Below are positions 707-56,870 of a stretch of 64,000 bases of DNA, one piece after another. The stretch spans positions 864 through 64,863 of the forward strand of contig JACQBR010000008.1 in assembly GCA_016194335.1 (NCBI GenBank), given 5' to 3'. Position 1 is the first letter of the stretch. Each line of letters starts with the position of its first letter. The notes beneath the pieces are model-generated. The model made no database searches. It was not told the DNA's origin and was given only the letters and a program-made list of their open reading frames with translations. The position numbers and the translations under genes were made by a program. Origin of the DNA: Candidatus Micrarchaeota archaeon. GTDB taxonomy: Archaea; Micrarchaeota; Micrarchaeia; Norongarragalinales; UBA97.

Positions 707-713
707 ATCCCTT

Positions 714-830
714 GGGGGGCTTAGCCCCTTTTTCCCCTTTTTTTTCTCTTTCTTCTTTTTTTCCCTTCTTTTCATATCTTTCGTTTTTGTTTTTCCCAGT
801 TTCACTCCTTGATTCTTTCCCATAAGCCTT
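714..830 (+). terminator. GC hairpin (ggggc-tta-gcccc) followed by a roughly 100-nt T/C-rich tract. Probable terminator of the upstream gene
   Basis: Inverted repeat at 716-728, then oligo-T runs (tttttt, ttttttttt). Archaeal terminators are oligo-T. Confidence 0.4.
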
Positions 831-910
831 TAGGGCTTCATACGGGCTATGGGGGGGGCAACGGTTTTTAATTCAGGCACGCGCATTAACTATCTCGGGT
901 TTAGGGCCAT

Positions 911-1390
911 ATGGCTGAAAAGAAGTTTTATCTCGAATCCGATTCCGAGCTGCAAAGGATAGGCCTGCGGGCGCAGGTCGTCTCGTTCCTAATCGCGCAA
1001 GGCATCGAGCGCGGAAATGCGCTTAACGACCCTGAGAACAAGAAGAGGGTGGTGGTAGCCATAGGCGCGGATGCCGATTCGCGCATTGAAGAGGTCAGGG
1101 ATGAGCTGGTCAAGTTCCTCAACAAGCTTCACGACGACGATCCTGCCTGCTACGGGCAGTTCCCCGCCGACATTCGCGCGAGCCAACTGCACGAATTGAG
1201 CAACCCGCATTCGATACGCCTGTTGGACCTCAACCACCTGGCAAATTCGCTCATGCTCGAACAGACGAGCAAGGGCGTGGGGGCGATGCTTTCGATTCCC
1301 GCTTCAATGGAGAAAGCCATGGTGAGGTCCCTGGAACCGCTGCATGGCCTTCCCCAGGCGATTGAGGCCCTGGCCAAGAGGCTGAAGTAG
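911..1390 (+). CDS. Hypothetical protein (159 aa)
   Basis: Clean ORF with balanced composition. No recognisable motif. Confidence 0.4.
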   Translation: MAEKKFYLESDSELQRIGLRAQVVSFLIAQGIERGNALNDPENKKRVVVAIGADADSRIEEVRDELVKFLNKLHDDDPACYGQFPADIRASQLHELSNPHSIRLLDLNHLANSLMLEQTSKGVGAMLSIPASMEKAMVRSLEPLHGLPQAIEALAKRLK

Positions 1391-1546
1391 CCATTGCATG
1401 TGCCCGGTGCCCGCACTTGAACGAGTGTGCGGCAGTGCCGGGGAAGTGTTAAAATTCATTACCTCCCCAAATCCTATTCCTGGGGTTTGATTTTCCCAAT
1501 ACCCTGAATGCCCGTGTTTTCCTTCCTGGAGTTGCCTTAGCCAAAG

Positions 1547-2392
1547 ATGCCGCAGAACAAGTTTCTCCACTACTTCACGCTTTTTCTCATAGCGTCGTTC
1601 ATCGTCTCCTCGTTTGCCGTCATCCTCTACCTTCCCGTCCAGCAGAACAACGGCCGGAATGGCAACAGCTCCGCCAATACCGGCCCGCAGGCCCAGGCGC
1701 AGCTTGAAGCGAGCGGCGTTGCGAAAAACGCCCGCGTGCTGGGGTTTTCAAACCAGCTTCTCGTGCTTTGCAATTCCACGCTGCCGGTGGACAGTTCCTC
1801 CATTGCGGGCGTGAAGGGCGTTCTCAACGCATTTCGGGTTTCTCCCTCCCTTTTCATCGCGCTTCTCAATTCAACCTCTCCCATAGTGCCCGTTGAAGAG
1901 GGGGAGGCGCAGGGTGTGGCAATCGGCATCCAAACGGCGCTCGAGCCATACTGCGCCGCTGCGGTTTACCGCAACGGGTTCGTTTCCATCGAATCGCCGG
2001 TCACCTTCGCCCTCAAGCCACCTGCAGGCACGCCGGTTTCGCTCAATGCGGCTTCCCAGCCTTCCAACGCCACGTTCTACCCCCTGGATTTCCGGGACTA
2101 TGCGGTGAAGAACAACCTCAGGGGAGTGCCCGCGGTTCTCGATGCCTTCACTTCCGGCAACCAGACGGTTGACTTGGTGATCTTCGCAACCGTGCAGGGA
2201 GACCAGCTTTCGCAAGTGAATTCCCAGCAGTCGGGCGGCGGCGGGCTGAAATTCTCCCAAGCCCGGGCGGAAGCTGTGGTGGTGAACTCCAGTTCAAACG
2301 CCTATTACCTCCAGGGTTTTTCCCCTTCGGCCAAAGGGCCGCAATCAACGGCACGGCGTGGCAGTGGCAGCTCAATTCCACCCCCAACGTGA
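1547..2392 (+). CDS. N-terminal-anchored extracellular glycoprotein, part 1. Probably one gene with 2389..2913, disrupted by a frameshift
   Basis: N-terminal TM helix and many NxS/T sequons (NSTLPV, NSTSPI, NATFYP, NQTVDL, NSSSN). The adjacent frame carries further sequons (NGT, NST, NVT) upstream of position 2389 and continues the same protein style. Confidence 0.5.
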   Translation: MPQNKFLHYFTLFLIASFIVSSFAVILYLPVQQNNGRNGNSSANTGPQAQAQLEASGVAKNARVLGFSNQLLVLCNSTLPVDSSSIAGVKGVLNAFRVSPSLFIALLNSTSPIVPVEEGEAQGVAIGIQTALEPYCAAAVYRNGFVSIESPVTFALKPPAGTPVSLNAASQPSNATFYPLDFRDYAVKNNLRGVPAVLDAFTSGNQTVDLVIFATVQGDQLSQVNSQQSGGGGLKFSQARAEAVVVNSSSNAYYLQGFSPSAKGPQSTARRGSGSSIPPPT

Positions 2393-4791: not shown

Positions 4792-7700
4792 ATGGTTAAC
4801 GACGTAAAGGATTTGGAAGAGCTTGTGAATTCCGTCTTGCCCCCCCAGTGCGAGCTTTCAAAAATAGAGCTCGAAGGCCCCCAGGTTGTGCTTTACCTCA
4901 AGAACATGCACGCGTTCTACGCCGACGTTAACCTCATCACGCGAATCGCTTCGAAAGTCCGCAAGAAGGTGCTCGTTCGTTCCGATTCCTCCATCCTAAT
5001 GCCTCCCGAAAGGGCGAAGGAAAAGGTCGCCGGCCTCATTCCCCCCGAGGCGGGAGTGAAGGAAATCCGTTTCGACCCGCATTTCAACGAGGTGCTCATC
5101 GAGGCCGCAAAGCCCGGGGTGGTAATCGGCAAGGGCGGAAGCGTGCTGAAAAGCATCACGCTCACCACCGGATGGTCCCCCCGCGTGCTCCGCGCGCCCA
5201 CGATGCCTTCCGAAATTGAGACTGCAATCCGAAACGCACTGCTTGCGGGCTCGGAGCAAAGGAAGAAATTCCTAGGGGTTTTTGGCAAGAGGATGCTGGG
5301 CGCCCCGGCCGCAACCGAGTGGGTGAAGATGACCGCGCTGGGAGGCTTTCGCGAAGTGGGCCGCAGCTGCTTTCTTTTGCAGACCCCGAAGAGCAACGTG
5401 ATTGTCGACTGCGGGCTCAACATCGACACCAGCGACGCCACGCGCGCCTATCCCTATCTCAACGCAATGGGGCTTTCGCTTGAGCAGATTGACGCGGTCA
5501 TCCTTTCGCACGCGCACCTCGACCACTGCCTCCATCCGGATTCCCTCATCCAGCTTGCAAACGGCGAAATAAGCAGCATTGAAGATTTGGCAGAACACGG
5601 CGGGGACGTCGTTTCTTACGATTTCGTTTCCGGCGCAACTGCAGGCGCTGTTGCAAGCAAGGGCGCTACTCAAAAGCCGGAAATGCTCAGGATCAAGACC
5701 AATTTATTCAGCATCCGCGCCACGCCAGAACACCGCTTTTTCGTCGTCAACGGCCTTGACGTGAGGGAAAAGCGCGCGGGAGAGCTGCGCGAGGGCGATT
5801 TCGTGGCGGCGCTGCGTTCAAGCAAATTCGAGGGAGCGGCAAACCAGCCTCTGCCCTTGGTGAAAGTGCAGGAGCTCGCTTTCATTTCGGGGGAAGGCAG
5901 GCTGAAAATGCGCCAAACGCGCGAGTCGTTCAAGCTGACCCGCAAGCAGGTTGCAGCAATTGCCGGAGTGCCGGCATGCCAATACGCATGGCTCGAATCG
6001 GGCAGGCACAAGCCGTCGAGGGAAAATTTGCAGAAATGCCTGCAGGCGCTGGGCCTGAAAACTCAGGATTTTGGGAATGAGGTTTCTGCAATCAAGTCGG
6101 CCGAGTTGCCCAAATTTTCAAGTGAGGAGTTCTGCCAGTTTTTGGGCTACGTCCTCGGCGACGGGAACGCGCACTATCAGGCGCACGATGCCAATTGCAA
6201 TGATTTGGCCGTGACGGACAAGGACGTGGCGAACCTCGAGTTTTACGCCCAGCTTGCAGAAAGGGTGTTCAATACAAAGCCGCGCTTTTCGCTCAAGGCG
6301 GGAACAAATGGCGGGAGAAACCGGGTGTTCTTCTCGTCCTACGTGACGAAGCTGATGTTCGCCTTGGACAAAGGGATTATTTGCCGCAGCCGCCAGCGCC
6401 GCGTACCCAAAATGATTCAGCGTGCGTCCAACGCCGAACTGGCCGCTTTCTTCCGCGGGCTTTTTGACGCCGAGGGGTCCGTGGGCCACCACTCGGTGAG
6501 GCTGGTCTCTTCAAGCGAGATGCTCTTGCGCGTGGCGCAGATGCTTCTATTGAGGCTGGGCGTGCAAAGCTGCATTGAAGAGCGCAAGGCGGTTTCGCAA
6601 AAAGCATTCTCCAAAGAGCCGTTCTACTGCCTTGCCATCACCCATCCCCGGTCGCTTTACGCATTCGGGGAGAAGATAGGCTTCTCATCAGAGGCGAAAT
6701 TGCAGAAATTCAAGGCGATGGCCGCCACCGTAGGCAATGCGCGCTCCGGAAAGGTTGACCTAATACCGATTGACGGTGCGGCGCTTAGGGCCGAATTGGC
6801 GGATGCGGGGTTGTTCGAAACCGATTTCGACTCCAGAATCTCCCGTTACTGGAACTGGAGCCACGCGCCGAGCAGGGAGGCAGTTGATGGAATCTGCGCG
6901 GGAATCGAAGCGCGTTTGCAGCTGCTGAAGACGGCTTCATCGCGGCAGGAGCTGCGAATAACGCAAGGGCAGGTCGGAAAGGCTTTGGGAGTGGACCAGT
7001 CGGTAGTTTCGGCAATCGAGCGCGGCAGAATCTCTTCGTGCAGCATTATCTACCGTGAGACGCAGGAGTTTTTGCACCTCTCCAGAGAAACCTGCATTTC
7101 AAAAGCGGAGCAACTTCTTCTCAAGTTGCGGATGCTCGTCTCGCAGGAGCTTGCGTGGGTGAAAATCAAGTCGATTGAAAATGAAACCCCGCCGGAGAAG
7201 GTTTACGACCTGAGCGTCCCCGGTTACGAGAACTTCGTTGCGGACGGTTTTGTCGTGCACAACTCCGGTTTCATCCCCTACCTCTACGCCTACGGCTACG
7301 AAGGCCCGGTCTACTGCACGCCCCCCACGCGGGACATGATGGTGCTTCTCCAGCAGGACTGCGTGAACGTGATGAATAGCGAGGGCGGCAAGGCCCCTTA
7401 CGGCGAGAGGGACATCAAGAAGGAGCTCATGCACGTGATCACCCGCGAGTACGGAGAGGTGACCGACGTGACGAGCGACATCCGCTTCACCTTCCACAAC
7501 GCGGGGCACATGATTGGAAGTTCCATCGTGCACATCCACATCGGCGAGGGCATGCACAACCTCATCTACTCCGGCGACATCAAGTTCGGCCGCACGAAAC
7601 TCTGCGACACCGCATCTACGCAATTCCCCCGCGCCGAGACGCTGATGATAGAGGCGACTTACGGCGGGCGCAACGACATCAAGCCGCGAATCGAGGATTG

Positions 7701-38272: not shown

Positions 38273-38399
38273 CCCGCTGTAGCTCAATCTGGCAGAGCAC
38301 CTGACTGTAGCCAAAAAGCGCGCTTGCACGAATGCGATGAATGCAAGCCAGTCCTCGTCAGAAATCAGGGTGTTGGGAGTTCAAATCTCCCCAGCGGGA
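38273..38399 (+). tRNA. tRNA-Tyr (anticodon GTA) with a 53-nt intron at the canonical 37/38 position (38311..38363)
   Basis: Acceptor cccgctg/cagcggg, D-arm gctc..gagc, anticodon stem cctga/tcagg, loop cTGTAg then the intron, T-arm gggag-ttcaaat-ctccc. Confidence 0.75.
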
Positions 38400-40709: not shown

Positions 40710-41780
40710 TCAGCCTGCGTTTTCGTAGTTGTACATCGCCGCGATTTCCGTTGCTGAAAGGGCGCGGGCGTACACGTGCGCCTCGTCGATCTGCCCGTTG
40801 AGGTTTTCGGCGTTGTAGTCAGTTCCCCCTCCGGCATACCAGTTGCGCGAGCCGGTGATTGCGTTGGCGTTTCCTGCGGAGTAGACTGGCGCGCCATTGA
40901 GGTAGAGCGTCACCGTTCCTGAAGACCTCACCCACGCGACGTGGTACCATTGGTTCGCGCTAAGAACCGGCCCGCCGCTTGTGGCTGCGGTGGCGTAATA
41001 GTTGACAATGCCGTTGTAGACATATAATTCAACCCCGCCGGCATTTCCAGAGCCGTAGTTGCCCATCACAAAATTAGCGACAGCTGGATTGACGAGATTC
41101 ACCCACGCGGTTGCCGTGAAATCCCCCGTGCCGGTTATCAACGGGGTTGAAAGGCCGATTTTCTGGCTTGAGCTTGGCCCGGCAAACGAATAGCACCCTC
41201 CCTTCTTGCAGGATGGAACGAATGTCGGCGGGCCGTTGAGGTTGCCGTTGTTGCCGCTGGGGCTCGCGTCAAGGGCGTTGTTTTCAAGGTGCAGCGAGAG
41301 CACCGCGGTGGAGTCCACCCAAGGGAGCCATGCGCCTTCGTACCTTCCGCGGATTGTCCCGGAAAGCGTGTGGTTGATTCCGCTCCGGGCGTTCACGTAC
41401 CATCCCCTTACCGCGCCTTGGTATGTGCTTCCGGGCGCACCTGAAGGCAATGCCCCGGACGCCTTGCACGTCGTGTTCCCCCCGGCTGCGACGGAGGCGG
41501 GGCTGCATGAGCCCCCTGCGACGGAGATGTTGCTTATGGCGTTTCCGAGCTGGTTGTTCAGAATGATCGTGAGCTTTCCGAGCGGGTCGACTGAAAAATC
41601 GCTTGCCAGCATTCCGGAGAACCCCGATGCGCTTTTGACGCCGATGAAGGACTCGGGGCTGAAGACGCCGGTGTACCACAAGGCCGCGCCGATGATGACG
41701 ATTGCGAGGATGGCCCAGCCGTAAGTGACGAGGTATTCGAGTGCGGACTGTCCCCTCGGGCGTGCAGGTTGCAATGCCAT
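40710..41780 (-). CDS. Type IV pilin-like protein (class III signal peptide) with a C-terminal LamG/ConA-like lectin domain
   Basis: PRGQSALEYLVTYGWAILAIVIIG is an archaeal prepilin peptidase site followed by a hydrophobic helix. C-terminal domain with W.HVAWV....LYLNG resembles Laminin_G_3. Confidence 0.65.
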   Translation of the reverse strand: MALQPARPRGQSALEYLVTYGWAILAIVIIGAALWYTGVFSPESFIGVKSASGFSGMLASDFSVDPLGKLTIILNNQLGNAISNISVAGGSCSPASVAAGGNTTCKASGALPSGAPGSTYQGAVRGWYVNARSGINHTLSGTIRGRYEGAWLPWVDSTAVLSLHLENNALDASPSGNNGNLNGPPTFVPSCKKGGCYSFAGPSSSQKIGLSTPLITGTGDFTATAWVNLVNPAVANFVMGNYGSGNAGGVELYVYNGIVNYYATAATSGGPVLSANQWYHVAWVRSSGTVTLYLNGAPVYSAGNANAITGSRNWYAGGGTDYNAENLNGQIDEAHVYARALSATEIAAMYNYENAG

Positions 41781-42016
41781 GGGATGAATCTCCAATGGAC
41801 TACTGTTTGGAGGTTTATAAAGCGGCATCAAACCGCACTTTGTCTCGTCAACCGCCGGCCTTATTTCAAGGGCTGGTTTGGTTCAGAAGGAAATCACTTC
41901 CTGCCCGGATATTGCCGCAGCATCCCTTACTCTCACCGCCCGCCTTTGCTCACTCTTTTATACCGATGATTCCTTACTTTAGTTGCAAAGTTCGTTTTTG
42001 GAGGATTGATTTGAAA

Positions 42017-42440: not shown

Positions 42441-42680
42441 TTGGGGACCGCAGAGCATATACTCGTGCCTAAGCATTCCATTGCCACCGAGCAGGAGGTG
42501 GCGGGTTTGCTCGAGAAATTCGGCAAGCCAGTGCAGGCCCTGCCCCTCATCGCAACCGACGACCCGGCAATCAAGGAATTGGGCGCAAGGGAGGGCGACG
42601 TGATCCGCATCGACCGCAACAGCCCCACGACCGGCAAGGTCGAGCCTTACTACCGCCTGGTTTCAGAGCTTGACGACTAG
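42441..42680 (+). CDS. rpoH: DNA-directed RNA polymerase subunit H (Rpb5-like)
   Basis: HILVPKH motif. 79 aa. Immediately upstream of rpoB. Start codon TTG or GTG. Confidence 0.8.
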   Translation: MGTAEHILVPKHSIATEQEVAGLLEKFGKPVQALPLIATDDPAIKELGAREGDVIRIDRNSPTTGKVEPYYRLVSELDD

Positions 42681-42798: not shown

Positions 42799-44268
42799 AT
42801 GGCCTTTGAGGAAATCACGGCTGATTATCTGCGGGAAAACAGCCTGGTCAAGCAGTTCATAGAGTCTTACGACAAGTTCGTCGAGACGGGCTTGCAGGAA
42901 GTGGTGGACAGCCAGCAGGTCATCGAGCCGCAGATTGAGGGGCTCGTGCTGCGCCTGGGCCGCATCCGCGTGGAGAAGCCGCGCGTGATCGAGGTGGACG
43001 GGTCTTCCCGCGTTTTCTACCCGGCCGAAACGCGCGCGCGCGACCTTTCGTACACCGCGCCGCTCTTTCTGGAAATCACTCCCGTCATCCACGGGAGCGA
43101 AAAGCGCACTGAAGAGGTGTTCGTGGGCGAACTGCCCGTGATGGTGAAGAGCAAGCTCTGCTACCTCAACGGGAAGTCCGCACAGGAGCTTGTCGAACTT
43201 GGCGAGGATGCCAAGGATCCGGGGGCGTATTTCGTCATCAACGGGACGGAAAAGACGCTCGTCACCCTCGAGGACCTTGCGCCAAACCGCATTCTGGTCT
43301 CGCGGGAGAAGGACGGCAAGTCGGTTCAGTCCAAGATTTTCTCCACCCGACTGGGATTCCGCGGCCGCTGCACCGTCGACCGCAGCACGGAAGGCAAGCT
43401 GAGCGTGACGATGCCCAGCTACGGCAAGCCCCTCGAGCTCACCCTCACGCTCAAGGCGTTGGGCATGGACAAGGTGGAGAAAATCGTCGAGGCGTTTTCG
43501 CAGGACCCCGAAGTGCAGAACGACATTGCCCTCAACCTCGAGATTGACGAGGCCAAAAACCGGCGCGAGGCCCTTGAGATAATCGGGAAGCGCGCGGCCC
43601 CCGGCCAGCCTGTTGAGTACCAGGTGCGGCGCGCGGAACTGCTTCTTGACCGTTATCTCCTTCCCCACATCGGCATCGACGAGAGCGCGCGCATCCCCAA
43701 GGCGTATTTCCTCACGCGCATGGCAGAACGCGCCACGATGGTGGCGTACAGGAAGCGCGCGCCCGAGGACAAGGACCACTATGCCAACAAGCGCCTCAAA
43801 ATAAGCGGAATGCTCATGGAAGAGCTGTTCCGCTATTCCTTCCAGTTCCTCGTCAAGGACGTGGCGTACCAGATGGAGCGCGCGAACGTGCGCGGCCGCA
43901 AGATGTCGATGTTCGCCGTCGTTCGCCCCGACGCCCTCACCGAGAGGCTGAAGTATTCAATGGCAACCGGCAACTGGGTGGGCGGGCACACGGGCGTTTC
44001 CCAGCCGCTTGACCGCTACAACTACATCAGCGCAATGAGCTTCCTGCGCCGCGTCACTTCCCCCTTGGCAAAGAAGCATCCCCACTACAAGGCGCGCGAC
44101 CTCAACGGCACGCACTTCGGCAGGCTCGACCCCAACGAAACGCCGGAAGGCCCCAACTGCGGCCTGGTAAAGGCGCTCGCTCTCTTCAGCGAAGTCACCA
44201 CGGGCACTCCCGAGGAGGAAGTGGAGCATTTGCTCAAGAAGATGGACGTCAGCCTCAGGCTGGACTAG
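42799..44268 (+). CDS. rpoB2: DNA-directed RNA polymerase subunit B'' (N-terminal half of split RpoB)
   Basis: Rpb2 N-terminal domains. Start at MAFEEITADYL. Confidence 0.92.
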   Translation: MAFEEITADYLRENSLVKQFIESYDKFVETGLQEVVDSQQVIEPQIEGLVLRLGRIRVEKPRVIEVDGSSRVFYPAETRARDLSYTAPLFLEITPVIHGSEKRTEEVFVGELPVMVKSKLCYLNGKSAQELVELGEDAKDPGAYFVINGTEKTLVTLEDLAPNRILVSREKDGKSVQSKIFSTRLGFRGRCTVDRSTEGKLSVTMPSYGKPLELTLTLKALGMDKVEKIVEAFSQDPEVQNDIALNLEIDEAKNRREALEIIGKRAAPGQPVEYQVRRAELLLDRYLLPHIGIDESARIPKAYFLTRMAERATMVAYRKRAPEDKDHYANKRLKISGMLMEELFRYSFQFLVKDVAYQMERANVRGRKMSMFAVVRPDALTERLKYSMATGNWVGGHTGVSQPLDRYNYISAMSFLRRVTSPLAKKHPHYKARDLNGTHFGRLDPNETPEGPNCGLVKALALFSEVTTGTPEEEVEHLLKKMDVSLRLD

Positions 44269-44374
44269 CGCAGTTCCATTTTGGTTTTTCGTTTTGTTTT
44301 TTTTTTGGTGCGGGAATCAAAAAAGATATTTTCAGGAAATCAAGGTCGTCATCAACTTCAGGGTGGTAGGGCAG

Positions 44375-46189
44375 ATGGCAAACAAGGCTTCGGTTTATCT
44401 CAACGGCCGCTTCGTCGGCTTCAGCGACAACGGCGAGAAGCTCGCGAGGGAATTGCGCGAGAAGAGGCGCGAGGGCGCGGTCCATTACCACACCAACGTC
44501 GCGTTCTACAAGAACACCAACGAGGTGTTCGTAAACAGCGACGAGGGAAGGCCGGTGAGGCCGCTTATAGTGGTGAAGGGAGGCAAGCCGGCAGTCACTC
44601 CCGAAATGCGCGAAAAGGTCCGCGCGGGCTCGCTTCACTTCAACGATTTGGTCAAGCAGGGCTCGATTGAATTCCTCGATTCGGAAGAGGAGGAGAACGC
44701 CCGCGTTGCGATGGACGAGTTGGTCATAGGGGAGAAGACCACGCATCTCGAAATCGACCCCCTCGGCATCCTCGGCTACGCAAGCGCCCAAGTCCCGTTC
44801 CCCGAGTACAACATGGCCCCACGCGTGCTGATGGCAGCCCAGCACACGAAACAGGCAATGGGGCTTTACGCGTCCAACTTCAACCTGCGCACCGACACGC
44901 GCGGCCACATCCTTTTCTACCCCCAGCGCCCGCTCGTCCAGACGAGGGCATACCGGGTGCTGGGGCAGGAGAAGCGGGCAAGCGGGCAGAACTTCGTCGT
45001 CGCGATCCTTTCGTACAAGGGCTTCAACATGAACGACGCGGTGGTGCTCAGCCAGAGCGCAATCGAGCGCGGGCTTGGCCGCAGCGCATTCCTGCGGACA
45101 TACACGGCCGAAGAGCGCCGCTACCCCGGGGGCCAGCGCGACAGGTTTGAAAACCCGCAGGAATTCGTGCAGGGGTACATGGGCGAGGAGACGTACAGGC
45201 ATCTTGACGAGGACGGCATCATCAGCCCGGAAACGCAGGTTGCCGGCGACGCGGTGCTCGTGGGAAAAACCTCCCCGCCCCGTTTTCTCAAGGAGGTTTC
45301 GGCCCTTGACGTGGAGACCGAACGCAGGCGCGAGTCCAGCGTGACGGTGCGCAGCAACGAGAGCGGCGTTGTCGACGCGGTCATCATGAGCCAGACCACC
45401 AGCGGAAACAGGCTTGCGAAAATCCGCGTGAGGAACACCTGCATTCCCGAAATCGGCGACAAGTTCGCATCCCGCTTCGGCCAGAAGGGAGTAATCGCCC
45501 TTGTCGCAAAGCAGGAGGACCTCCCATTCACCAAGGACGGCGTCACTCCCGACCTCATCATCAACCCCCACGCCATCCCCGGCCGCATGACTGCCGGCCA
45601 CCTTCTCGAGATGATCGGGGGCAAGGCATCGTGCGTCGACGGGGCGCTCAAGGACGGCACGGCATTTACCGGCGCGAAGCAGGAGGACTTCGAAAAGGCG
45701 CTTCTGGCATCCGGCATGTCCCCCGCGGGGCAGGAATACCTCTACGACGGCAGCACCGGAAAGATGATGGCAGCGAAAATCTTCGTGGGCGTCATTTACT
45801 ACCAGCGCCTCCACCACCTCGTCCAGCTCAAGATGCACGCGCGCAGCCGCGGGCCCGTGCAGATGCTCACCCACCAGCCCACGGAAGGCCGCGCCCGCGA
45901 GGGAGGCCTGAGGCTGGGGGAGATGGAACGCGACTGCTTCATCGGCTTCGGCGCGGCCCTTCTCCTGCGCGAGAGGATGATCGACGCTTCGGACAAGACC
46001 GTGGAGCTGATTTGCAACCCCTGCGGCGGCGCGGGCGTGTACGACAAGGTCAAGAAAATCAAGTACTGCTCGCTCTGCGAATCCGGCGACGTGGAGGAAG
46101 TGGAGATGTCCTACGCCTTCAAGTTGCTGCTTGACGAGATGAAGAGCATCGGAATCAGCCCCAAGATAAAGCTGAAGGCCAGGGGATGA
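44375..46189 (+). CDS. rpoB1: DNA-directed RNA polymerase subunit B' (C-terminal half of split RpoB)
   Basis: Rpb2 C-terminal domains GDKFASRFGQKG and C-terminal zinc ribbon CNPCGG...CSLC. Start at MANKASVYLNG. Confidence 0.92.
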   Translation: MANKASVYLNGRFVGFSDNGEKLARELREKRREGAVHYHTNVAFYKNTNEVFVNSDEGRPVRPLIVVKGGKPAVTPEMREKVRAGSLHFNDLVKQGSIEFLDSEEEENARVAMDELVIGEKTTHLEIDPLGILGYASAQVPFPEYNMAPRVLMAAQHTKQAMGLYASNFNLRTDTRGHILFYPQRPLVQTRAYRVLGQEKRASGQNFVVAILSYKGFNMNDAVVLSQSAIERGLGRSAFLRTYTAEERRYPGGQRDRFENPQEFVQGYMGEETYRHLDEDGIISPETQVAGDAVLVGKTSPPRFLKEVSALDVETERRRESSVTVRSNESGVVDAVIMSQTTSGNRLAKIRVRNTCIPEIGDKFASRFGQKGVIALVAKQEDLPFTKDGVTPDLIINPHAIPGRMTAGHLLEMIGGKASCVDGALKDGTAFTGAKQEDFEKALLASGMSPAGQEYLYDGSTGKMMAAKIFVGVIYYQRLHHLVQLKMHARSRGPVQMLTHQPTEGRAREGGLRLGEMERDCFIGFGAALLLRERMIDASDKTVELICNPCGGAGVYDKVKKIKYCSLCESGDVEEVEMSYAFKLLLDEMKSIGISPKIKLKARG

Positions 46190-46321
46190 GCCCCCCATTC
46201 ATCCCTTGATTTTTTTTCCCGTTGATGAATTGTTTTTTTTTGTTTTTTGTTTTCGTCAAGTAGATTCTTCAGATTGTTTTGCGGTTCTCAAATCCGTTCA
46301 AACGCCGGCTGGTGGTAAAAA

Positions 46322-49300
46322 ATGAAGGTCATTGGTGCGATTGAGTTCGGCGTTTTCTCCCCCGAGCAGGTGCGCAAGATGTCGGCCGTGAAGATCACCG
46401 TGCCCGACACTTACGACGAGGACGGCTACCCCATCAACGGCGGGCTTGCCGACCAGCACCTCGGCGTCATCGACCCGGGCCTGCGCTGCAAGTCCTGCGG
46501 CGGCCGCATGAAAAGCTGCTCGGGCCACTTCGGCCACATTGAGATGGTGCGGCCCGTCATCCACGTGGGGTTCGCAAAGGCCGTTTACCACCTGCTCAAG
46601 GCGACGTGCCGCAAGTGCTCCCGCCTGCTTGTCGAGGACAGCACTTTTGAGAAGCCCAAGAAGGCCGCGGTCTGCCCCCACTGCGCCGAGCAGCAGGGCG
46701 CGATAAAGTTTGTCAAGCCCACGAGCTTTTTCGAGGACGTGGGCGGCAAGGAAAGGAGGCTTTTGCCCAACGAAGTTCGCGAGAGGATGGAGCACATTTC
46801 CGACGAGGACCTCAACACCCTCGGCGTGAAAATCAGGCCCGAGTGGATGGTCCTTACCGTCCTCATCGTCCCTCCGGTCACCGTGCGCCCCAGCATCACC
46901 CTTGAGACGGGCGAGCGCAGCGAGGACGACCTCACCCACAAACTCGTGGACGTGCTGCGCATCAACCAGCGCCTCGGCGAGAACATCGACGCCGGCGCCC
47001 CGCAGCTCATCATCGAGGACTTGTGGGAGCTTCTCCAATACCACGTCGCGACTTTCTTCGACAACGAGACCGCAGGCATCCCGCCTGCAAGGCACCGCAG
47101 CGGAAGGCAGCTCAAGACGCTCTTCCAGCGCCTCAAGGGCAAGGAAGGCAGGTTCCGCTACAACCTTTCGGGCAAGCGCGTGAACTTCAGCGGCCGCACC
47201 GTCATTTCCCCCGACCCCACCCTCGGCATCAACGAGCTCGGGGTTTCCGAGCACATCGCAAGGGAGCTTACAGTCCCGATTTTCGTCACCGAATGGAATC
47301 TCGAGCCCATCAAGGAGCTTGTCAAGGGCCATCCGGAAAAAATCAATTACGTCATCCGCCCCGACGGCAAGCGCAAGAAGCTCATCGGCCTCAACATCGA
47401 GGAAGTGACGGCGGAAATCGTCCCCGGCTACACTGTGGAGCGGCAGCTTATGGATGACGACATCGTGATTTTCAACCGCCAGCCCAGCCTCCACCGCGTG
47501 AGCATGATGGCCCACCACGTCAAGGTCCTTCCGGGAAAGACTTTCCGCTTCAACTCCGCCGTCTGCAAGCCGTACAACGCCGACTTCGACGGGGACGAGA
47601 TGAACATCCACGTTCCGCAGAACGAGGAGGCGCAGGCCGAGGCGGAAATCCTCATGAAGGCCCAGGAGCAGATCCTCTCCCCCCGCAACGGCGAGCCCAT
47701 AGTAGTTCCCGAGCTCGATCAGATTTCCGGCCTTTACATGCTTACCGCCAAGGGCGTGGAATTCCCCCGTTCGGAAGCGGCGATGATGCTTTCCCGCGCC
47801 GGCGTCAACGACGCCGAGTTCAAGGGGGAGAAGGTTTCAGGACGGGAAATCCTCTCCGCGATTCTCCCCAAGGAATTCGACTTCGAATGCGCCAGCCTCG
47901 CGTTCCACCAGAAGTGCAAGGAGTGCCCCGGGGGCAAGTGCGCCGAGCACGACTCCACCGTAGTGGTGAAGAACGGCAAGTTTTTGCGCGGCCATCTCGA
48001 CGGCCGCTCGAGCGACAAGCTCGTCCGCGCGCTATTCAAGGAATTCGGAAGCGACGCGGCGGCGAAATACCTCGACGCGGCAACCAAGATTTCCGTCGAC
48101 GTTGCCACCGACTTCGGCATCTCCCTCTCGCTTGACGACTACGCCATTACGGACAAGACCCGCGGGGAGCTCGGCGAGCTTTACCTCACGGCGCACAAGG
48201 GGGTGCGCAAGCTCATCCAGAAATACCGCATGAAGAGGCTCGCGCGGCTGCCCGGCAAGACGCTCAAGGAGACGCTGGAGGAGCAGGTGATGGACATCCT
48301 CGAGGCGGTTCGCCACGACGCGTGGGGCATAATCAAGACCCACGTGCGCAAGCACCCCGTGAAGTTCGGCGGGGCGGAAATAATGCACAACTCCGCGCTT
48401 CTCATGGCCGACTCCGGCGCGAGGGGCAAGCCCATCAACGTCGTGCAGATGGCTGGCATCGTCGGCCAGCAGGCCGTGCGCGGAAAGCGCATGCGCTCAG
48501 GGTACAAGGGCCGCATCCTTTCCCACTTCGCAAAGGGCGACCTTTCCGACCTCGCGCGCGGGTTCGTGCGCGACAGTTACGTCCGCGGCCTTTCCCCCCA
48601 CGAGTACTTCTTCCACGCCGCAGGAGGCAGGGACAGCGTCGTTGACAAGGGAGTCAACCCCGCCAAGACGGGTTACATGCAGCGCAGGCTCATCAACGCC
48701 CTTCAGGACATCGTGGTGCAGAAGGACCTCACCGCAAGCGACGCGGAGGGGAAAATCATCCAGTTCAAGTACGGCGACGACGGGATGCACCCGGCGGGGA
48801 ACGCCGTGGCATACGGCGAGCCCGTGGGAGTGATCGCGGCTCAGAGCATCGGCGAGCCCGGAACGCAGATGTCCATCCCTTCGGGTGAAAAAGTGGTCGT
48901 AAGCATTGACGGCGCGATGAAACCCGTGGCAATCGGGGAGTTCGTGGACGGGCTCATCGAGAAGCATGGCTCGATCAAAATAGGCGGGGCTTCGGTTGTG
49001 GACCTTCCCCAAAGCGCAGGCATTTGCGTCCCCAGCCTCTCGCAGGAAGGCAAGGTTGTTTTCAAGAGGCTCATTTCCGCCAGCAGGCACGAGTGCGGAA
49101 AGAAAATCCTCGAGATAACCACGCGTTCGGGAAGGAAAATCCGCGCGACCGACAACCACTCCTTCGTCATCCGCAAGGACAACAGAATCATTCCCGTCAT
49201 GGGAAGTTCCCTCAAGGTCGGCCAGAGGATTCCCGTTGTCAAGTCCATGCCCTCCCCCGCACTGTTTGCCCAAGGTGCCGAGAGCCTTGATTTGCAGCAA

Positions 49301-51334
49301 CACCTTCCAAAGAGCACCCACTGGTTTGGAAGCGAACTCAAAAAGGCGCTTGCGCCGGGCGTGATAAGCCGCGCGGGCCACAATGTTTCGTACACTATTC
49401 CCGTGGGCGCGGATGCGTTAAGGCACTACGCGGGGCATGGGAATTCATTCGAAATCGAGGACGGCTTTGTCTATCCAGTGCAGAACCACGGCAACGCGAG
49501 GATTCCCGAATCAATGCCCCTCGACTCGAAATTCGGCTGGTTTGTCGGGGCCTACCTTTCCGAAGGCAGCCTGAGCAGGTACAACGTGGGCATTTCAAAC
49601 ACTGACTCCGAGTTCATCGCAAGGACGAAGGGATTCGCCGACTCCCTCGCGCTCAAATACGCGGAGAAGGCCAACAGCCGCGGCTTTGCCTTGGGCAACG
49701 GCCTTACCATCAATTCAACCCTGCTTTCCGAACTGTTGCAAAAGACCTGCGGCAAGGGCTCGTCAAGCAAGCGCGTTCCTGAATTCGCCTTCAGCGCAAA
49801 CGAAAAGTTCATCTCATCGCTTCTTTCGGCGTATTTCGATGGCGACGGCAACGTGACGATGGAGCGCAATGCGATTCGCGCCTCTTCCAACTCGAAGGAA
49901 CTGATTGACGGGGTTGCACTGCTGCTCTGCAGGCTTGGCATCTTCTGCACCAAGCACTTCGCTTCGGGCCAGCACTGCCTCTCCATTCCGGGGGCGTACG
50001 CAAACCGCTTCAGGGAGAAAATCGGCTTCGTGTGGGCCAAGAAGTCTTCCTTACTTGGGAAACTTTGCACCAAGGAAACCAAGCGCATCTCTTACGACAT
50101 TCTCGACATGAAAGTCGGGTTCGGAAGCGTGATAGGCGACGCCGCCAGGAAGCTCGGAGTGCCCTCCCGTTTGGTCAGCAAGTTCACCAAGAAGCAGGAA
50201 ATCGGCGTGAAGACGCTTGCGAAATACGTTGACAAGTTCGGGGAACTCTCGCGCCAAAATAGCATCAACGTGGATAAAGAGCTTTCCGTAATGAAAGCCA
50301 TGCTTGAGGAAGACGTGGCGTGGGACGAGATTGTCGAGGTGAAGTTCGTCGACTCCACGCCCCTGGTCTACGACTTTTCCGTCGAGGGGCTCGAGACGTT
50401 CGCCACCTTCGACGGCGTGATTACGCACAACACGCTGCGCACCTTCCACTACGCCGGAGTCGCCTCGCTCGCGCAGCTCGGCTTCACCCGACTGGTGGAA
50501 ATCGTCGACGCGACCAAGAAGCCGAAGAGCCCCGTGATGGAAGTCTACCTTCGCAAGGAGCTTTCCAAGGACTTCGAGAAGGTCAAGAAGTTCGCCGCTT
50601 CTCTTGAGCAGCTCACGCTGGAGCAGGTTGCCGATGTGAGGGAGAATTTCGACCGCAAGAGCATCCGCGTCACCTGGGACGAGAAGTCGCTTCACGACAA
50701 GGCGGTGAAGGAAGACGAGATTTTCGAGAAGGTCAAGCTCGTCGCCCCCGCGGAGAAGACCCAGACTGGAATCACCGTCCGCCCCAAGGCAGACAGCATC
50801 CGCAACACCCGCAAGATCACCAACAAGCTTCGCGAAATCATCCTGCGGGGAGTGGCGAACATTTCCCGCGCCATCATCATCGAAAAGGCAGGGGAGTACG
50901 TCGTGGCGACGGAAGGGAGCAACCTCGAAGGCTTGCTGAAGATTCCCGAAGTGGACTCCTCGCGCACCACCACCAACGACATTACCGAAACCTACCACGT
51001 GCTCGGGGTGGAGGCCGGCCGCAACTCCATAATGAACGAGATGCTCAAAGTGCTCACCGCCCAGGGGCTCAAGGTCGACGCGAGGCACATCATGCTCATT
51101 GCCGACTCGATGACCTCCAAGGGCAAGCTCACTTCAGTCGGAAGGCACGGCCTTGCGGGGGAGAAGAGATCCGTCCTCGCGCGCGCGGCCTTTGAAGAGA
51201 CTGCCAAGCACCTCCTCAACGCCTGCATCAAGGGCGAGGAAGACCCCCTTCAGGGAATTGCCGAGAACATCATCATCGGCCAGACCATCCCCTGCGGGAC
51301 GGGCAAGGTCAAGCTCGAGATGACCATTGAGTAG
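46322..51334 (+). CDS. rpoA: DNA-directed RNA polymerase subunit A with the A' and A'' portions fused in one ORF, interrupted by a 520-aa intein
   Basis: Rpb1 zinc ribbon and the NADFDGD active site lie in the N-terminal part. GEPGTQM is followed by the intein, then TLRTFHYAGVA of the A'' region. There is no stop codon between the A' and A'' regions. Confidence 0.9.
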   Translation: MKVIGAIEFGVFSPEQVRKMSAVKITVPDTYDEDGYPINGGLADQHLGVIDPGLRCKSCGGRMKSCSGHFGHIEMVRPVIHVGFAKAVYHLLKATCRKCSRLLVEDSTFEKPKKAAVCPHCAEQQGAIKFVKPTSFFEDVGGKERRLLPNEVRERMEHISDEDLNTLGVKIRPEWMVLTVLIVPPVTVRPSITLETGERSEDDLTHKLVDVLRINQRLGENIDAGAPQLIIEDLWELLQYHVATFFDNETAGIPPARHRSGRQLKTLFQRLKGKEGRFRYNLSGKRVNFSGRTVISPDPTLGINELGVSEHIARELTVPIFVTEWNLEPIKELVKGHPEKINYVIRPDGKRKKLIGLNIEEVTAEIVPGYTVERQLMDDDIVIFNRQPSLHRVSMMAHHVKVLPGKTFRFNSAVCKPYNADFDGDEMNIHVPQNEEAQAEAEILMKAQEQILSPRNGEPIVVPELDQISGLYMLTAKGVEFPRSEAAMMLSRAGVNDAEFKGEKVSGREILSAILPKEFDFECASLAFHQKCKECPGGKCAEHDSTVVVKNGKFLRGHLDGRSSDKLVRALFKEFGSDAAAKYLDAATKISVDVATDFGISLSLDDYAITDKTRGELGELYLTAHKGVRKLIQKYRMKRLARLPGKTLKETLEEQVMDILEAVRHDAWGIIKTHVRKHPVKFGGAEIMHNSALLMADSGARGKPINVVQMAGIVGQQAVRGKRMRSGYKGRILSHFAKGDLSDLARGFVRDSYVRGLSPHEYFFHAAGGRDSVVDKGVNPAKTGYMQRRLINALQDIVVQKDLTASDAEGKIIQFKYGDDGMHPAGNAVAYGEPVGVIAAQSIGEPGTQMSIPSGEKVVVSIDGAMKPVAIGEFVDGLIEKHGSIKIGGASVVDLPQSAGICVPSLSQEGKVVFKRLISASRHECGKKILEITTRSGRKIRATDNHSFVIRKDNRIIPVMGSSLKVGQRIPVVKSMPSPALFAQGAESLDLQQHLPKSTHWFGSELKKALAPGVISRAGHNVSYTIPVGADALRHYAGHGNSFEIEDGFVYPVQNHGNARIPESMPLDSKFGWFVGAYLSEGSLSRYNVGISNTDSEFIARTKGFADSLALKYAEKANSRGFALGNGLTINSTLLSELLQKTCGKGSSSKRVPEFAFSANEKFISSLLSAYFDGDGNVTMERNAIRASSNSKELIDGVALLLCRLGIFCTKHFASGQHCLSIPGAYANRFREKIGFVWAKKSSLLGKLCTKETKRISYDILDMKVGFGSVIGDAARKLGVPSRLVSKFTKKQEIGVKTLAKYVDKFGELSRQNSINVDKELSVMKAMLEEDVAWDEIVEVKFVDSTPLVYDFSVEGLETFATFDGVITHNTLRTFHYAGVASLAQLGFTRLVEIVDATKKPKSPVMEVYLRKELSKDFEKVKKFAASLEQLTLEQVADVRENFDRKSIRVTWDEKSLHDKAVKEDEIFEKVKLVAPAEKTQTGITVRPKADSIRNTRKITNKLREIILRGVANISRAIIIEKAGEYVVATEGSNLEGLLKIPEVDSSRTTTNDITETYHVLGVEAGRNSIMNEMLKVLTAQGLKVDARHIMLIADSMTSKGKLTSVGRHGLAGEKRSVLARAAFEETAKHLLNACIKGEEDPLQGIAENIIIGQTIPCGTGKVKLEMTIE
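48872..50431 (+). mobile_element. Intein (520 aa) with a LAGLIDADG homing endonuclease, inserted at GEPGTQM|TLRTFH of RpoA''
   Basis: Starts with Ser (SIPSGEKVVV), ends VITHN with +1 Thr. Internal LAGLIDADG blocks GWFVGAYLSEGSL and LLSAYFDGDGNV. Confidence 0.8.
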
Positions 51335-51375: not shown

Positions 51376-51609
51376 ATGAAACGTCGTGCAACTTCAATCG
51401 TTCGGGGCCGCGTCCAGGGCGTCGGATACCGCGACAGGGTGTTGGAGAAGGCTCTGGAGCTCGGCATTGCGGGTTTTGTTGAGAACGAGCCCGACGGCAG
51501 CGTCAAGGTTGTTTGCGAAGCAGAGGAAGGAGTTCTCCAAAAATTTCCTTCCTCAATCGAGATAAAACACGAGCCGGACAAAGGAATCATTCTTGTCAAG
51601 TCGGTCTAA
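51376..51609 (+). CDS. acyP: Acylphosphatase
   Basis: VRGRVQGVGYR is the acylphosphatase signature. Confidence 0.8.
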   Translation: MKRRATSIVRGRVQGVGYRDRVLEKALELGIAGFVENEPDGSVKVVCEAEEGVLQKFPSSIEIKHEPDKGIILVKSV

Positions 51610-51651
51610 ACCTTTTTTTCCCAACCAACCGGAGAGTTCTCTTATTCTGAA

Positions 51652-51909
51652 GTGAAAATGGGAGAACTTCCTTCCGAAATTCGCGAAGGCTTCCGCACGG
51701 CATACAACTACTTCGGCCTTTTCAGCGAACGCACCGACGAAAATTTCAACCGGGTTGATGCCAAGTATGGCGTTATCCATCAGGAAATGATGGCGTTTCA
51801 GGCCACGATGAAGGAACTCGTCACGGCTCTGCGCGAAGACCGGGAAGAAATCAAAAGAATAAGCAAAGGCATCACAAAGATTGCCGACCGGCTCGCGCCC
51901 GAAGCTTAG
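51652..51909 (+). CDS. Hypothetical small protein (85 aa)
   Basis: ORF only. Confidence 0.3.
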   Translation: MKMGELPSEIREGFRTAYNYFGLFSERTDENFNRVDAKYGVIHQEMMAFQATMKELVTALREDREEIKRISKGITKIADRLAPEA

Positions 51910-51921
51910 CGTGCGTTCATG

Positions 51922-52332
51922 TCAGCTTTTCTTCAGCACCGTGAACGACTCCGTCTCCATCACGCCTTCAGTCCGCCTTATTTTTTCGAGAAGCTCGTTG
52001 AGGATGGGCAGCGCCGGGGAGTGAACGAGGCAAATGACGTCGAACCTTCCAGTCACTTCGAGCAGTTCCTCCACGCCCGCGTAGTGCTTGAGCTTCTCGA
52101 CGATTTTCCCGGTGGGCTTGTGCGAGTCGGTCTTCAGCCCGATTATCGCGCTCACGCCCTCGTAGCTCCCCTCGTAGGTGAAGCGCCTTACCGTCCCTTC
52201 GGAAACGAGCCTCGCGATGCGGTTGCGCACCGTCCCCTCGCTCACGCCGATTTCCTCTGCGATTTCGCTAAGCGGCGCGCGTGCGTTTTCCTTCAGGATT
52301 GAGAGGATGCTGCGGTCAGTAGCGTCAACCAT
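51922..52332 (-). CDS. lrp: Lrp/AsnC-family transcriptional regulator
   Basis: N-terminal HTH (ILSILKENARAPLSEIAEEIGVSEGTV) and a C-terminal RAM domain. Confidence 0.85.
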   Translation of the reverse strand: MVDATDRSILSILKENARAPLSEIAEEIGVSEGTVRNRIARLVSEGTVRRFTYEGSYEGVSAIIGLKTDSHKPTGKIVEKLKHYAGVEELLEVTGRFDVICLVHSPALPILNELLEKIRRTEGVMETESFTVLKKS

Positions 52333-54647: not shown

Positions 54648-56870
54648 ATGGCACGAAAGGAAGTTGTCGTCGACGAAGTCGTCCGCCTCATGGGCGCGCG
54701 GGAATACATCCGCAACATGGGCATAGTCGCGCACGTGGATCACGGAAAAGGCTAAAGCCACATTGCGGGCTTTGCTTACGGTCAGACCACGCTGAGCGAC
54801 TCTCTCGTAGCAGTAGCGGGGCTCATTTCCCGCGACCTGGCCGGGGAGCAGCGCGTGCTCGATTACGACCCTCAGGAGCAGGCGCGCGGAATCACGATCA
54901 AGGCCGCGAACATCTCCCTTGGGTTCAACTACGAGAACCAGGATTACATCATCAACATGATTGACACTCCCGGCCACGTGGACTTCGGCGGCCACGTCAC
55001 GCGCGCCATGCGCGCCGTTGACGGCGTGATTCTCGTCATTGACAGCGTGGAGGCCATCATGCCGCAGACAGAGACGGTGCTGCGCCAGGCGCTCAAGGAG
55101 AAAGTGCGCCCCGTGCTCTTCATCAACAAGATAGACCGGCTCATCAACGAGCTCAAGCTCGACTCGAAGGGGATGCAGGAGAGGTTCCTCAAAATCATCA
55201 GCGGGGTGAACAAGCTCATCGCCACCTACGCGCCCGACGAGTTCAAGCAGGAGTGGCAGCTCAGCGTGGAAAAGGGCAACGTGGCTTTCGGAACCGGCTT
55301 TCACAAGTGGGCCGTTTCGTACCCCATCATGAAAAAGACGGGAATGAACTTCAAGGAGCTTTACGACTTATGCGCCGCTGACAACCACGCCGAACTGCGC
55401 AAGAAGGCGCCGCTTGAGGAAGTCATTCTCGAAATCGTCGTGAGGAACCTCCCGTCGCCCATCACGGCGCAGAAATACCGCATTCCCGTCATCTGGCACG
55501 GGGACAAGGGGAACGCGTGGGGCAGGGGAATGCTCACCTGCGACCCGAAGGCGCCCGCCTGCTTCATGGTAACGGCGGTGCAGGTGGACGAGCACGCCGG
55601 CGAAGTGGCAATCGGCCGCCTCTACTCCGGAACGATACGGAAAGGGACCGAACTCTATCTCGCGGGCCAGTTCAAGAACCAGAAGGTGCAGAGCGTCGCG
55701 ATTTACATGGGCCCCGACCGCGTGCTCGTGGACGAAGTGCCTTCGGGCAACATCGTCGCCGTCATCGGGCTCAAGGACGTGTTTGCAGGCGAGACGGCAA
55801 GCGAAGGCCAGATGGACGCATTCGAAAAGATCAAGCACCACTCCGTGCCCGTCGTGACCAAGAGCGTGGAGGCTAAAAACCCCCGCGACCTCGTCAAGCT
55901 CATCGAAGTCCTACAGAAATTGGGCAAGGAAGACCCCACCATCCGGGTTGAAATCAACCAGCAGACGGGCGAGCACCTCATTTCCGGAATGGGTGAGCTG
56001 CACCTCGAAATCATCGAGTACAAGATTGCCAAGGAAAGGGGCGTGGAGATCGAGACGTCCCCGCCGATTGTGGTCTACCAGGAGGCCGTCCTCGAGCGCG
56101 GGCCCGAGCTTGAGGGCAAGTCGCCGAACAAGCACAACAAGTTCAAGCTCGAAGTGATGCCTCTTGAGGAAGGCGTGCGCAAGGCCATCGAGGAAGGCAC
56201 GATTGACGAGCGCACGAAGGGCAAGGAGCTTGTCGAGAAGCTCATCGCAGCGGGGCTGGAGCGGGATGAGGCGAAGAAAATCATCTGCATCCACCGCGAC
56301 AACATCTTCATCGACGCGTCGAAGGGAGTGCAGTTCCTCCAGGACATCAAGGAGCTGCTCATCCAGGCTTTCGAGGAGGCCGTCGAGCAGGGGCCGCTTG
56401 CCAAGGAGAAAGTCGTGGGGCTAAAAGTGCTTCTCAACGACGCGGTGATCCACGTCGACCCGGCCCACCGCGGGCCCGCGCAGGTCTTCCCCGCAATCAA
56501 GCGCCCGCTCTACGCAGGCATGGTCATGGCGAAGTGCGTGCTTTTCGAACCCAAGCAGAAGCTCGTGGTCAACGCTCCCGCCGAGTACATGAGCAACATA
56601 ATCCAGAGCATCCAGGGAAGGCGCGGGCAGGTGCTTGACATCGCGCAGGACGGCGAGCTCATCAACGTGACGGCCAAAGTCCCAGTCGCCACCATGTTCG
56701 GCTTTGCCTCCGACATCCGCGGGGCGTCGCAAGGCCGCGCCGCGTGGTATTACGAATACGCCGGTTACGAACAGCTGCCCTCGAGCTTGCAGGGACCGAC
56801 GATCGCGGCCATCCGCAAGCGCAAGGGCGAGAACGAAACCCCGCCGACGGCGAAGGACTTTCTGGACTAA
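54648..56870 (+). CDS. fusA: Elongation factor 2 (aEF-2), interrupted by a 36-nt in-frame insertion (54750..54785) that carries a TAA stop
   Basis: [34 protein letters not shown], then the insertion encoding [11 protein letters not shown], then [12 protein letters not shown].... Deleting exactly 36 nt restores the consensus G1 motif AHVDHGKTTLSD. Everything downstream through [11 protein letters not shown] and the C-terminus is EF-2. Confidence 0.85.

Follow-up and report, generated by a model that had tools for sequence, protein, structure and literature searches.

An rpoA reading frame joining A' and A'' through a compact junction, and interrupted by an intein, in Micrarchaeota

Archaea usually encode the largest subunit of their RNA polymerase by two genes. 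Here, we examine a 64,000-nt stretch of DNA (hereafter the window) from Candidatus Micrarchaeota archaeon (assembly GCA_016194335.1, contig JACQBR010000008.1, positions 864-64,863 of the forward strand) in which the equivalents of both genes lie in a single open reading frame (ORF), rpoA, that also carries an intein. We describe the anatomy of this fused gene, the short junction that connects its A' and A'' parts, and its distribution and possible history among archaea.

The rpoA ORF and its intein

The gene stands in an rpo operon that opens with rpoH and continues with the two halves of a split rpoB, between which lie a TAG stop and a 106-nt T-rich spacer (Table 1). The ORF listing gives rpoA as one stop-free frame of 1670 aa. 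Pfam places Rpb1 domains 1-5 in order within it, with intein splicing and LAGLIDADG_3 domains nested inside domain 5. The same ORF matches two NCBIfam equivalogs, the A' model NF006336 (1153 bits, residues 109-828, reaching model position 863 of 883) and the intein-containing A'' model NF011491 (854 bits, residues 832-1668, from model position 57). As the first match ends at 863 and the second starts at 57, the last ~20 positions of A' and the first ~56 of A'' are without a counterpart. No separate rpoA2 gene follows the fused rpoA in the 64-kb window.

Removal of the intein yields a 1150-aa protein in which AAQSIGEPGTQM and TLRTFHYAG are rejoined and the NADFDGD, bridge-helix and trigger-loop motifs are all intact. 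Very probably, the ORF is a real gene whose product is the largest RNA polymerase subunit as a single chain (Rpo1, A'+A''), made as a 1670-aa precursor; the fused gene would be expressed as a single polypeptide.

Table 1. Features of the rpo operon and of the fused rpoA (window coordinates; residues are those of the rpoA ORF)
Feature	Coordinates	Strand	Basis or remarks
rpoH (Rpo5/Rpb5 C-terminal domain), first gene of the operon	42441..42680	+	Pfam PF01191, E 7e-21
rpoB'' (N-terminal half of the split second-largest subunit)	42799..44268	+	NCBIfam NF007175, 627 bits; Pfam Rpb2 domains 1-3
rpoB' (C-terminal half of split subunit B)	44375..46189	+	TIGR03670, 883 bits; Pfam Rpb2 domains 4-7
Fused rpoA (A'+A'', single-chain Rpo1), predicted precursor ORF	46322..51334	+	1670 codons including the intein
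N-extein, 850 aa: whole A' equivalent, compact junction, first trigger-loop residues	46322..48871	+	
Catalytic Mg-binding motif NADFDGDEMN, residues 419-428	47576..47605	+	Direct sequence reading
Bridge helix FFHAAGGRDSVVDKGVNPAKTGYMQRRLINALQD, residues 763-796	48608..48709	+	Aligned to Rpb1 746-876; invariant in ~80 clusters
Compact A'/A'' junction YGDDG-MHPAGNAVAY-GEPVG	48770..48829	+	PDB alignments; cluster spacing; AlphaFold2 model of P0421
Trigger-loop N-terminal base AAQSIGEPGTQM, ending at the intein insertion point	48836..48871	+	
Intein, 520 aa, residues 851-1370, with LAGLIDADG homing-endonuclease domain	48872..50431	+	Pfam PF14890, PF14528; TIGR01445
Intein block B RATDNHSF (TxxH motif)	49142..49165	+	Direct sequence reading
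LAGLIDADG motif 1 GWFVGAYLSEGSL	49535..49573	+	Direct sequence reading
LAGLIDADG motif 2 LLSAYFDGDGNV	49820..49855	+	Pfam LAGLIDADG_3, residues 1164-1235; sequence reading
Intein blocks F/G VYDFSVEGLETFATFDGVITHN	50366..50431	+	Direct reading; conserved in homologues
C-extein, 300 aa + stop: TLRTFHYAG (trigger loop), then A'' jaw, cleft and clamp parts	50432..51334	+	TIGR02389, NF011491

The bridge helix reads DKGVNPAKTGYMQRR, and its Pro780 (48659..48661), at the position of T821 in M. jannaschii A', is invariant across the ~80 Micrarchaeota clusters described below. In Woese-/Nanoarchaeia the helix reads DTALRTPKSGY, with the proline one position later (the A822 position). Both T821P and A822P retain clearly detectable activity (Tan et al. 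2008).

The window derives from a metagenome-assembled genome (MAG), and the fusion could in principle be an assembly or sequencing artefact that masks a stop after A' and a new start before A''. However, the DNA reads through in frame at 48740-48900, and the same 1670-aa protein, 100% identical, is found in two Micrarchaeota MAGs (MBI3587918.1 and MBI5176949.1). In an independent Logan assembly (run SRR12113409), one contig matches the window at 100% identity over 8737 nt, a stretch that takes in all of rpoA. Over 4.8 kb downstream, the second MAG (GCA_016212415.1) shows 11 differing positions and two indels relative to the window and is therefore a separate strain, yet its protein is identical. 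In addition, the flanks of the linker are strongly conserved, and data from many studies show an in-frame junction of constant length again and again, in 23 species representatives and in ~80 protein clusters. The cross-assembly identity, together with this conservation, rules out a hidden stop or frameshift at the junction, and we regard the chance of an artefact as negligible.

The intein interrupts the base of the trigger loop (GEPGTQM-TLRTFH). Its splicing residues, Ser851, T943-D-N-H946, H1369-N1370 and the +1 residue Thr1371, are those of a class 1 intein, and through Ser1, the block B Thr and His, the terminal His-Asn and the +1 Thr it should excise itself by protein splicing, leaving a 1150-aa subunit with an intact trigger loop. 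Because the trigger loop is interrupted, the polymerase should be inactive before splicing. LAGLIDADG inteins often degenerate, and the element might instead be a decayed, non-splicing remnant, in which case this rpoA copy would be non-functional. We consider this highly improbable: the splicing blocks (Ser1, TxxH, HN, +1 Thr) are all intact, both LAGLIDADG motifs retain their acidic residues, homologous inteins keep the same termini, and the 64-kb window holds no second copy of rpoA.

All intein homologues that we found lie in A'' at GTQM/S...HN/T, with 42-58% identity, in Woesearchaeota, Aenigmarchaeota, Micrarchaeota and Euryarchaeota; their hosts go by a protein name of their own at NCBI, "intein-containing DNA-directed RNA polymerase subunit A''". 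Among the compact-junction clusters introduced below, 7 of 80 carry the intein; it is absent from the closest relatives (L002-L005, 76-81% identity, junction-region match) and present in L026 and L027. Its GC content at third codon positions is 74%, against 85-86% in the exteins. This patchy spread and lower value are typical of a homing intein that occupies a conserved site in an essential protein, and the LAGLIDADG endonuclease would enable homing into empty alleles.

The L026 locus shows a further feature in a neighbouring subunit. At 2..2059 it has a 686-aa frame with the rpoB'' end, of which only the first 126 residues match RpoB'' (window protein 329-454); this rpoB'' may contain an insertion such as an intein.

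The compact junction

The A' and A'' parts meet in a 10-residue linker, MHPAGNAVAY (48785..48814), between YGDDG and GEPVG, and the spacing from GYMQRR to AQSIGEP is 55 residues. In alignments of a junction query to solved structures, query residue 135 corresponds to Rpb1 876 and residue 139 to Rpb1 1058; in T. kodakarensis, A' is aligned up to position 880 of 906 and A'' from position 58 of 391. The linker of ~10 residues stands for ~83 residues of the split archaeal enzymes and for 181 of Rpb1 (877-1057). Absent throughout the compact-junction clade are the C-terminal tail of A' and the archaea-specific N-terminal domain of A'', the latter described as an added domain of Rpo1C, beta'-aD3 (PMC11515920).

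These alignments bear out the initial annotation of this stretch, which had noted that the A'' leader of about 50 aa is missing and that about 10 residues separate the A' end motif from the GEP motif: both the ends of the family-model matches and the structure alignments agree with it. The alignment to split A'/A'' pairs and to unsplit Rpb1 that it had proposed gave the gap at Rpb1 877-1057 and the T. kodakarensis boundaries at A' 880 and A'' 58. Its other structural statements also hold, namely A'+A'' in one 1670-codon ORF (ORF listing, Pfam, NCBIfam), a 520-aa intein at GTQM/T with a Ser start, HN end and +1 Thr (sequence, Pfam, TIGR01445), the LAGLIDADG blocks GWFVGAYLSEGSL and LLSAYFDGDGNV where it had placed them, and an rpoB split into 42799..44268 and 44375..46189 (NF007175, TIGR03670).

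Judged by the alignment gap at 877-1057 and by W954, described as a residue of the Rpb1 foot domain (PMC5389574), the missing segment is at the position of the foot, and the whole clade appears to have lost the archaeal counterpart of this domain. The yeast foot is required for association of Rpb6 and Rpb4/7 (PMC5389574), and foot-less enzymes may therefore serve as natural minimal variants for assembly studies.

Bacterial beta' aligns across the junction in one gap-free stretch of equal length, with M. smegmatis beta' (5tw1_D) 959-1050 corresponding to query residues 11-102 and T. thermophilus 1183-1271 to residues 8-98. The same two structural elements are thus linked just as briefly in the solved bacterial enzymes, and the YGDDG-terminated strand leads into the trigger-loop helix via ~10 residues, at the spacing of bacterial beta'. 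An AlphaFold2 model of a 76%-identical relative, P0421, built on a 107-sequence alignment (mean predicted local distance difference test score, pLDDT, 80.4; 85-92 at the junction), has an unbroken bridge helix and, over its full length, matches chains of Rpb1 and RPC1 at template modelling (TM) scores of 0.65-0.68. Across the clade the linker varies in sequence and is constant in length, which points to a structural constraint.

Distribution and history of the fused gene

A scan of one genome per GTDB species identified 23 Micrarchaeota loci (some named Norongarragalinales or just archaeon) that a 320-aa junction query matches without a break. Their frames are 1134-1171 aa long where complete, the GYMQRR-AQSIGEP spacing is 56-58 residues in all 23, and rpoB is split in every one of them. 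In a homologue search of proteins, this junction query returned only entries of at most 560 aa; full-length fused proteins surfaced with the whole 1150-aa extein as query. In that search ~80 clusters at 90% identity share the spacing (52-57 by regular expression), under the names Micrarchaeota, Micrarchaeia and Norongarragalinales, and in one case Marsarchaeota. The fusion is a trait of a large Micrarchaeota clade and is not private to the window genome. The rarity that the initial annotation had implied is not supported by this result: it had named fused rpoA in related genomes as the mark of a known lineage trait, and the 23 species representatives and ~80 clusters have it. Unsplit RpoA had moreover been published (PMC3082918, PMC5484517), and the intein is a common RpoA'' allele.

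Other fused proteins have longer junctions. The spacing is 68 in Micrarchaeales, 63-91 in Altiarchaeota and 125 in the Micrarchaeota-labelled P0502, which has a full-length segment, so that fused relatives form a series of 125 (P0502), 91, 63-71 (Micrarchaeales, Altiarchaeota) and 52-57. In fused proteins of Bathyarchaeota, Hecatellales, Helarchaeota and Baldrarchaeia it is 132-138, and Korarchaeota proteins are fused too.

Compact fused rpoA also occurs, together with unsplit rpoB, in five Woese-/Pacearchaeota genomes (L025, L028-L031); in L025, L028 and L030 the two unsplit products are 1084-1096 aa (RpoB) and 1165-1169 aa (RpoA). In two related Nanoarchaeia/Woesearchaeota genomes A' is split in the ordinary way, and rpoB is split as well in L033, the one that could be checked. 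Compared over the A' region, the fused proteins of Woese-/Pacearchaeota share 54-56% identity with the split Nanoarchaeia protein and 45-48% with those of Micrarchaeota. As they are nearer to the former, the compact fused state arose at least twice.

The Micrarchaeota-labelled genome L034 (Micrarchaeota archaeon CG1_02_47_40) has a standard operon with split rpoA and an intein at the usual A'' site. At 6840..7110 its A' ends in YGGDGVDPSKVSSLAESEEKEKED and, after an 11-nt gap, A'' begins with MKKEKSEKKESKALVDIGEAVG. Both are short Lys/Glu-rich tails; the structured foot is already lost and charged tails alone are left in its place.

The history that we consider most likely starts with a secondary A'/A'' fusion, after which this lineage, whose genomes are reduced, lost the surface-exposed foot segment step by step. 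Its simplest form would be an old fusion in the group, gradual shortening (125, 91, ~66, ~55) and occasional re-splitting, an order of events that we read from the compared sequences.

The compact, unsplit, foot-less subunit could conversely be the ancestral, bacterial-like state, kept in DPANN, since its junction is co-linear and equal in length with that of bacterial beta' and several deep archaeal lineages have unsplit genes. However, the deeper-branching fused P0502 retains a full-length segment of ~85 aa that resembles the TACK/Asgard segment, intermediates with spacings of 63-91 exist, and the identities of the Woese-/Pacearchaeota compact forms (54-56% against 45-48%) argue for at least two origins. 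Da Cunha et al. likewise read the Pacearchaeota fusion as secondary (PMC5484517). An ancestral compact state is very unlikely in the light of these observations.

A closer competitor holds that the fusion is ancestral to Micrarchaeota and Altiarchaeota, that the foot was lost later, and that split genes such as that of L034 are secondary re-splits. In a neighbour-joining tree, split L034 falls among the fused P0500 and P0512, with the long-junction P0502 and Altiarchaeota outside, and its Lys/Glu-rich tails, 11 nt apart, are what would be expected if a stop and a start arose in a flexible linker. However, the tree is of a single gene and has no bootstrap, and independent fusions in each lineage fit the data nearly as well. 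We regard this account as a real possibility that falls somewhat short of an even chance.

Several points weigh against the secondary fusion and clade-wide trait set out above. The genome scan was seeded with 8-mers of the window protein and favours close relatives; taxon names are submitters' labels; at least L034, labelled Micrarchaeota, is split, which means that not every member of the named phylum has the trait; and the tree is a rough one, of one protein and few taxa, without support values.

The split or fused state of RpoA appears labile in DPANN. At its broadest, and only as a speculative proposal that we think doubtful as a whole, an unsplit gene would be ancestral to Micrarchaeota and Altiarchaeota, and the A'/A'' boundary would have been repeatedly lost, shortened and, as in L034, re-created in a dispensable, surface-exposed foot. 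The state of the gene would then be no rare genomic change suited to rooting archaea, and an archaeal RNA polymerase could work with a connection of bacterial length in place of the foot.

Neighbouring genes, a candidate intron and relation to known systems

Downstream of rpoA the genes encode, in order, an acylphosphatase, a small ORF, an Lrp/AsnC regulator on the opposite strand, L30e, NusA, S12, S7 and EF-2. The acylphosphatase, the ORF (85 aa) and the minus-strand regulator (51376..52332) form a three-gene insertion that separates rpoA from rpl30e; in L034, L30e lies directly 3' of A'' without them. The sister strain (L036 484..624) lacks 49 nt (window 51479..51527) within the acylphosphatase gene, giving a 46-aa product. 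Within the operon, the spacers 44269..44374 (106 nt) and 46190..46321 (132 nt) have long oligo-T runs immediately after the rpoB'' and rpoB' stops that look like the termination signals of archaea, and such signals would not be expected between subunits of the same enzyme. Elsewhere in the window, 38273..38399 gives a full-length Rfam tRNA match over 127 nt that ARAGORN does not report, probably an intron-containing tRNA gene, and 40710..41831 on the minus strand encodes a 373-aa protein whose N-terminus is hydrophobic and of the archaeal pilin/class III signal type (QSALEYLVTYGWAILAIVIIGAALW), and which carries a concanavalin/LamG-like domain at its C-terminal end.

The last gene of the cluster, EF-2, starts at 54651 (MARKEVV...) and contains a 36-nt insertion (54748..54783) with an in-frame TAA inside its P-loop codons (AHVDHGK / TTLSD), where the relatives L002-L004 have an uninterrupted AHVDHGKTTLSD. 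Reaching other assemblies through the neighbouring S12 gene, we found the insertion in the Logan contig as well, and in the second strain with one substitution in the loop of a predicted hairpin. The region 54722..54812 is predicted to fold at -32.1 kcal/mol (z-score -2.3) into a 13-bp exon 1/exon 2 helix, a four-position central helix and a 10-bp intron hairpin, with two 3-nt bulges, AAA (54746-54748) and, on the opposite strand, UCA (54782-54784). In the canonical register, 3.2 kcal/mol above the minimum, the two Watson-Crick pairs of the central helix lie between A.G and G.A. Cuts between the second and third bulge nucleotides, a position modelled on the ARMAN-2 endonuclease-RNA structure (PMC12397907), would excise exactly 36 nt and give CAC GGA AAG ACC ACG (HGKTT). 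Micrarchaeota possess the broad-specificity epsilon2 splicing endonuclease. The sole archaeal coding-sequence intron of the bulge-helix-bulge type reported is that of cbf5 in Crenarchaeota (PMC7714728), and the insertion looks like a candidate second case, with a relaxed motif, in an essential translation factor of a DPANN archaeon. It may matter more than the rpoA fusion.

As a single locus, the fused rpoA matters little. The arrangement is normal for its lineage, and what is gained is the correct reading of a gene annotated only as "subunit A'"; public annotation gives these fused proteins that label, and the NCBI name "subunit A'/A''" is used for A-type enzymes. More broadly, fused RpoA is common in uncultured archaea (Micrarchaeota, Altiarchaeota, some Woese-/Pacearchaeota, Hel-/Baldrarchaeia and TACK lineages), and marker-gene pipelines that expect separate rpoA1 and rpoA2 will mis-score such genomes.

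Unsplit RpoA has been tabulated for Thaumarchaeota, Korarchaeota and Aigarchaeota (Caldiarchaeum) (Nunoura 2011, PMC3082918). Da Cunha 2017 (PMC5484517) distinguished A-type from A'A''-type enzymes, treated fusion and split events as rare, reported unsplit RpoA in Bathyarchaeota and mentioned a "secondary fusion in Pacearchaeota"; Micrarchaea were removed from that data set. RpoA fusion arose or changed more than once in DPANN, and this weakens the rarity argument for polarising the archaeal root. Our literature search found no description of fused RpoA in Micrarchaeota or Altiarchaeota, or of loss of the foot segment. Fusions of this kind have been described before in other archaea; what is somewhat new is how compact the junction is, a feature common to the whole clade.

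The A-type RpoA of Thaum-, Aig-, Kor- and Bathyarchaeota is the nearest published arrangement, with all A' and A'' domains in one ORF and in the same order as in the window. However, A-type proteins are 1270-1340 aa long and keep a segment of 80-100 residues at the split site, with a spacing of 125-138 against 52-57 in the window clade, and their lineages have unsplit rpoB, whereas that of the window is split. The 80-100 aa between YGEDG and GEAVG that mark the TACK/Asgard type are likewise missing from the window protein, whose spacing is 55 against 125-138 in Bathy-, Hel-, Baldr- and Hecatellales proteins. The Pacearchaeota fusion is also a DPANN fused A, and the Woese-/Pacearchaeota genomes L025 and L028-L031 have the same kind of compact junction. 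Theirs is an independent event, with unsplit rpoB and 45-48% identity to Micrarchaeota.

Beyond archaea, bacterial beta' (rpoC, from CYGxDL to the trigger-loop base) has the same ~10-residue connection from the YGxD strand to the GEAVG..AAQSIGEPGTQ helix. In contrast, the rest of the window protein is of archaeal/eukaryotic type, with 1153 bits to A' and 854 to A'' against 374 to rpoC, and the best structural matches of the P0421 model are Rpb1 and RPC1. The intein, finally, shares the GTQM/T site, Ser1, HN, +1 Thr and LAGLIDADG domain with the RpoA'' inteins of Euryarchaeota and DPANN (NF011491/PRK14898; 42-58% identity). Those inteins reside in a separate A'' host, whereas the host is fused in the window, in six further Micrarchaeota clusters and in one Helarchaeota protein.

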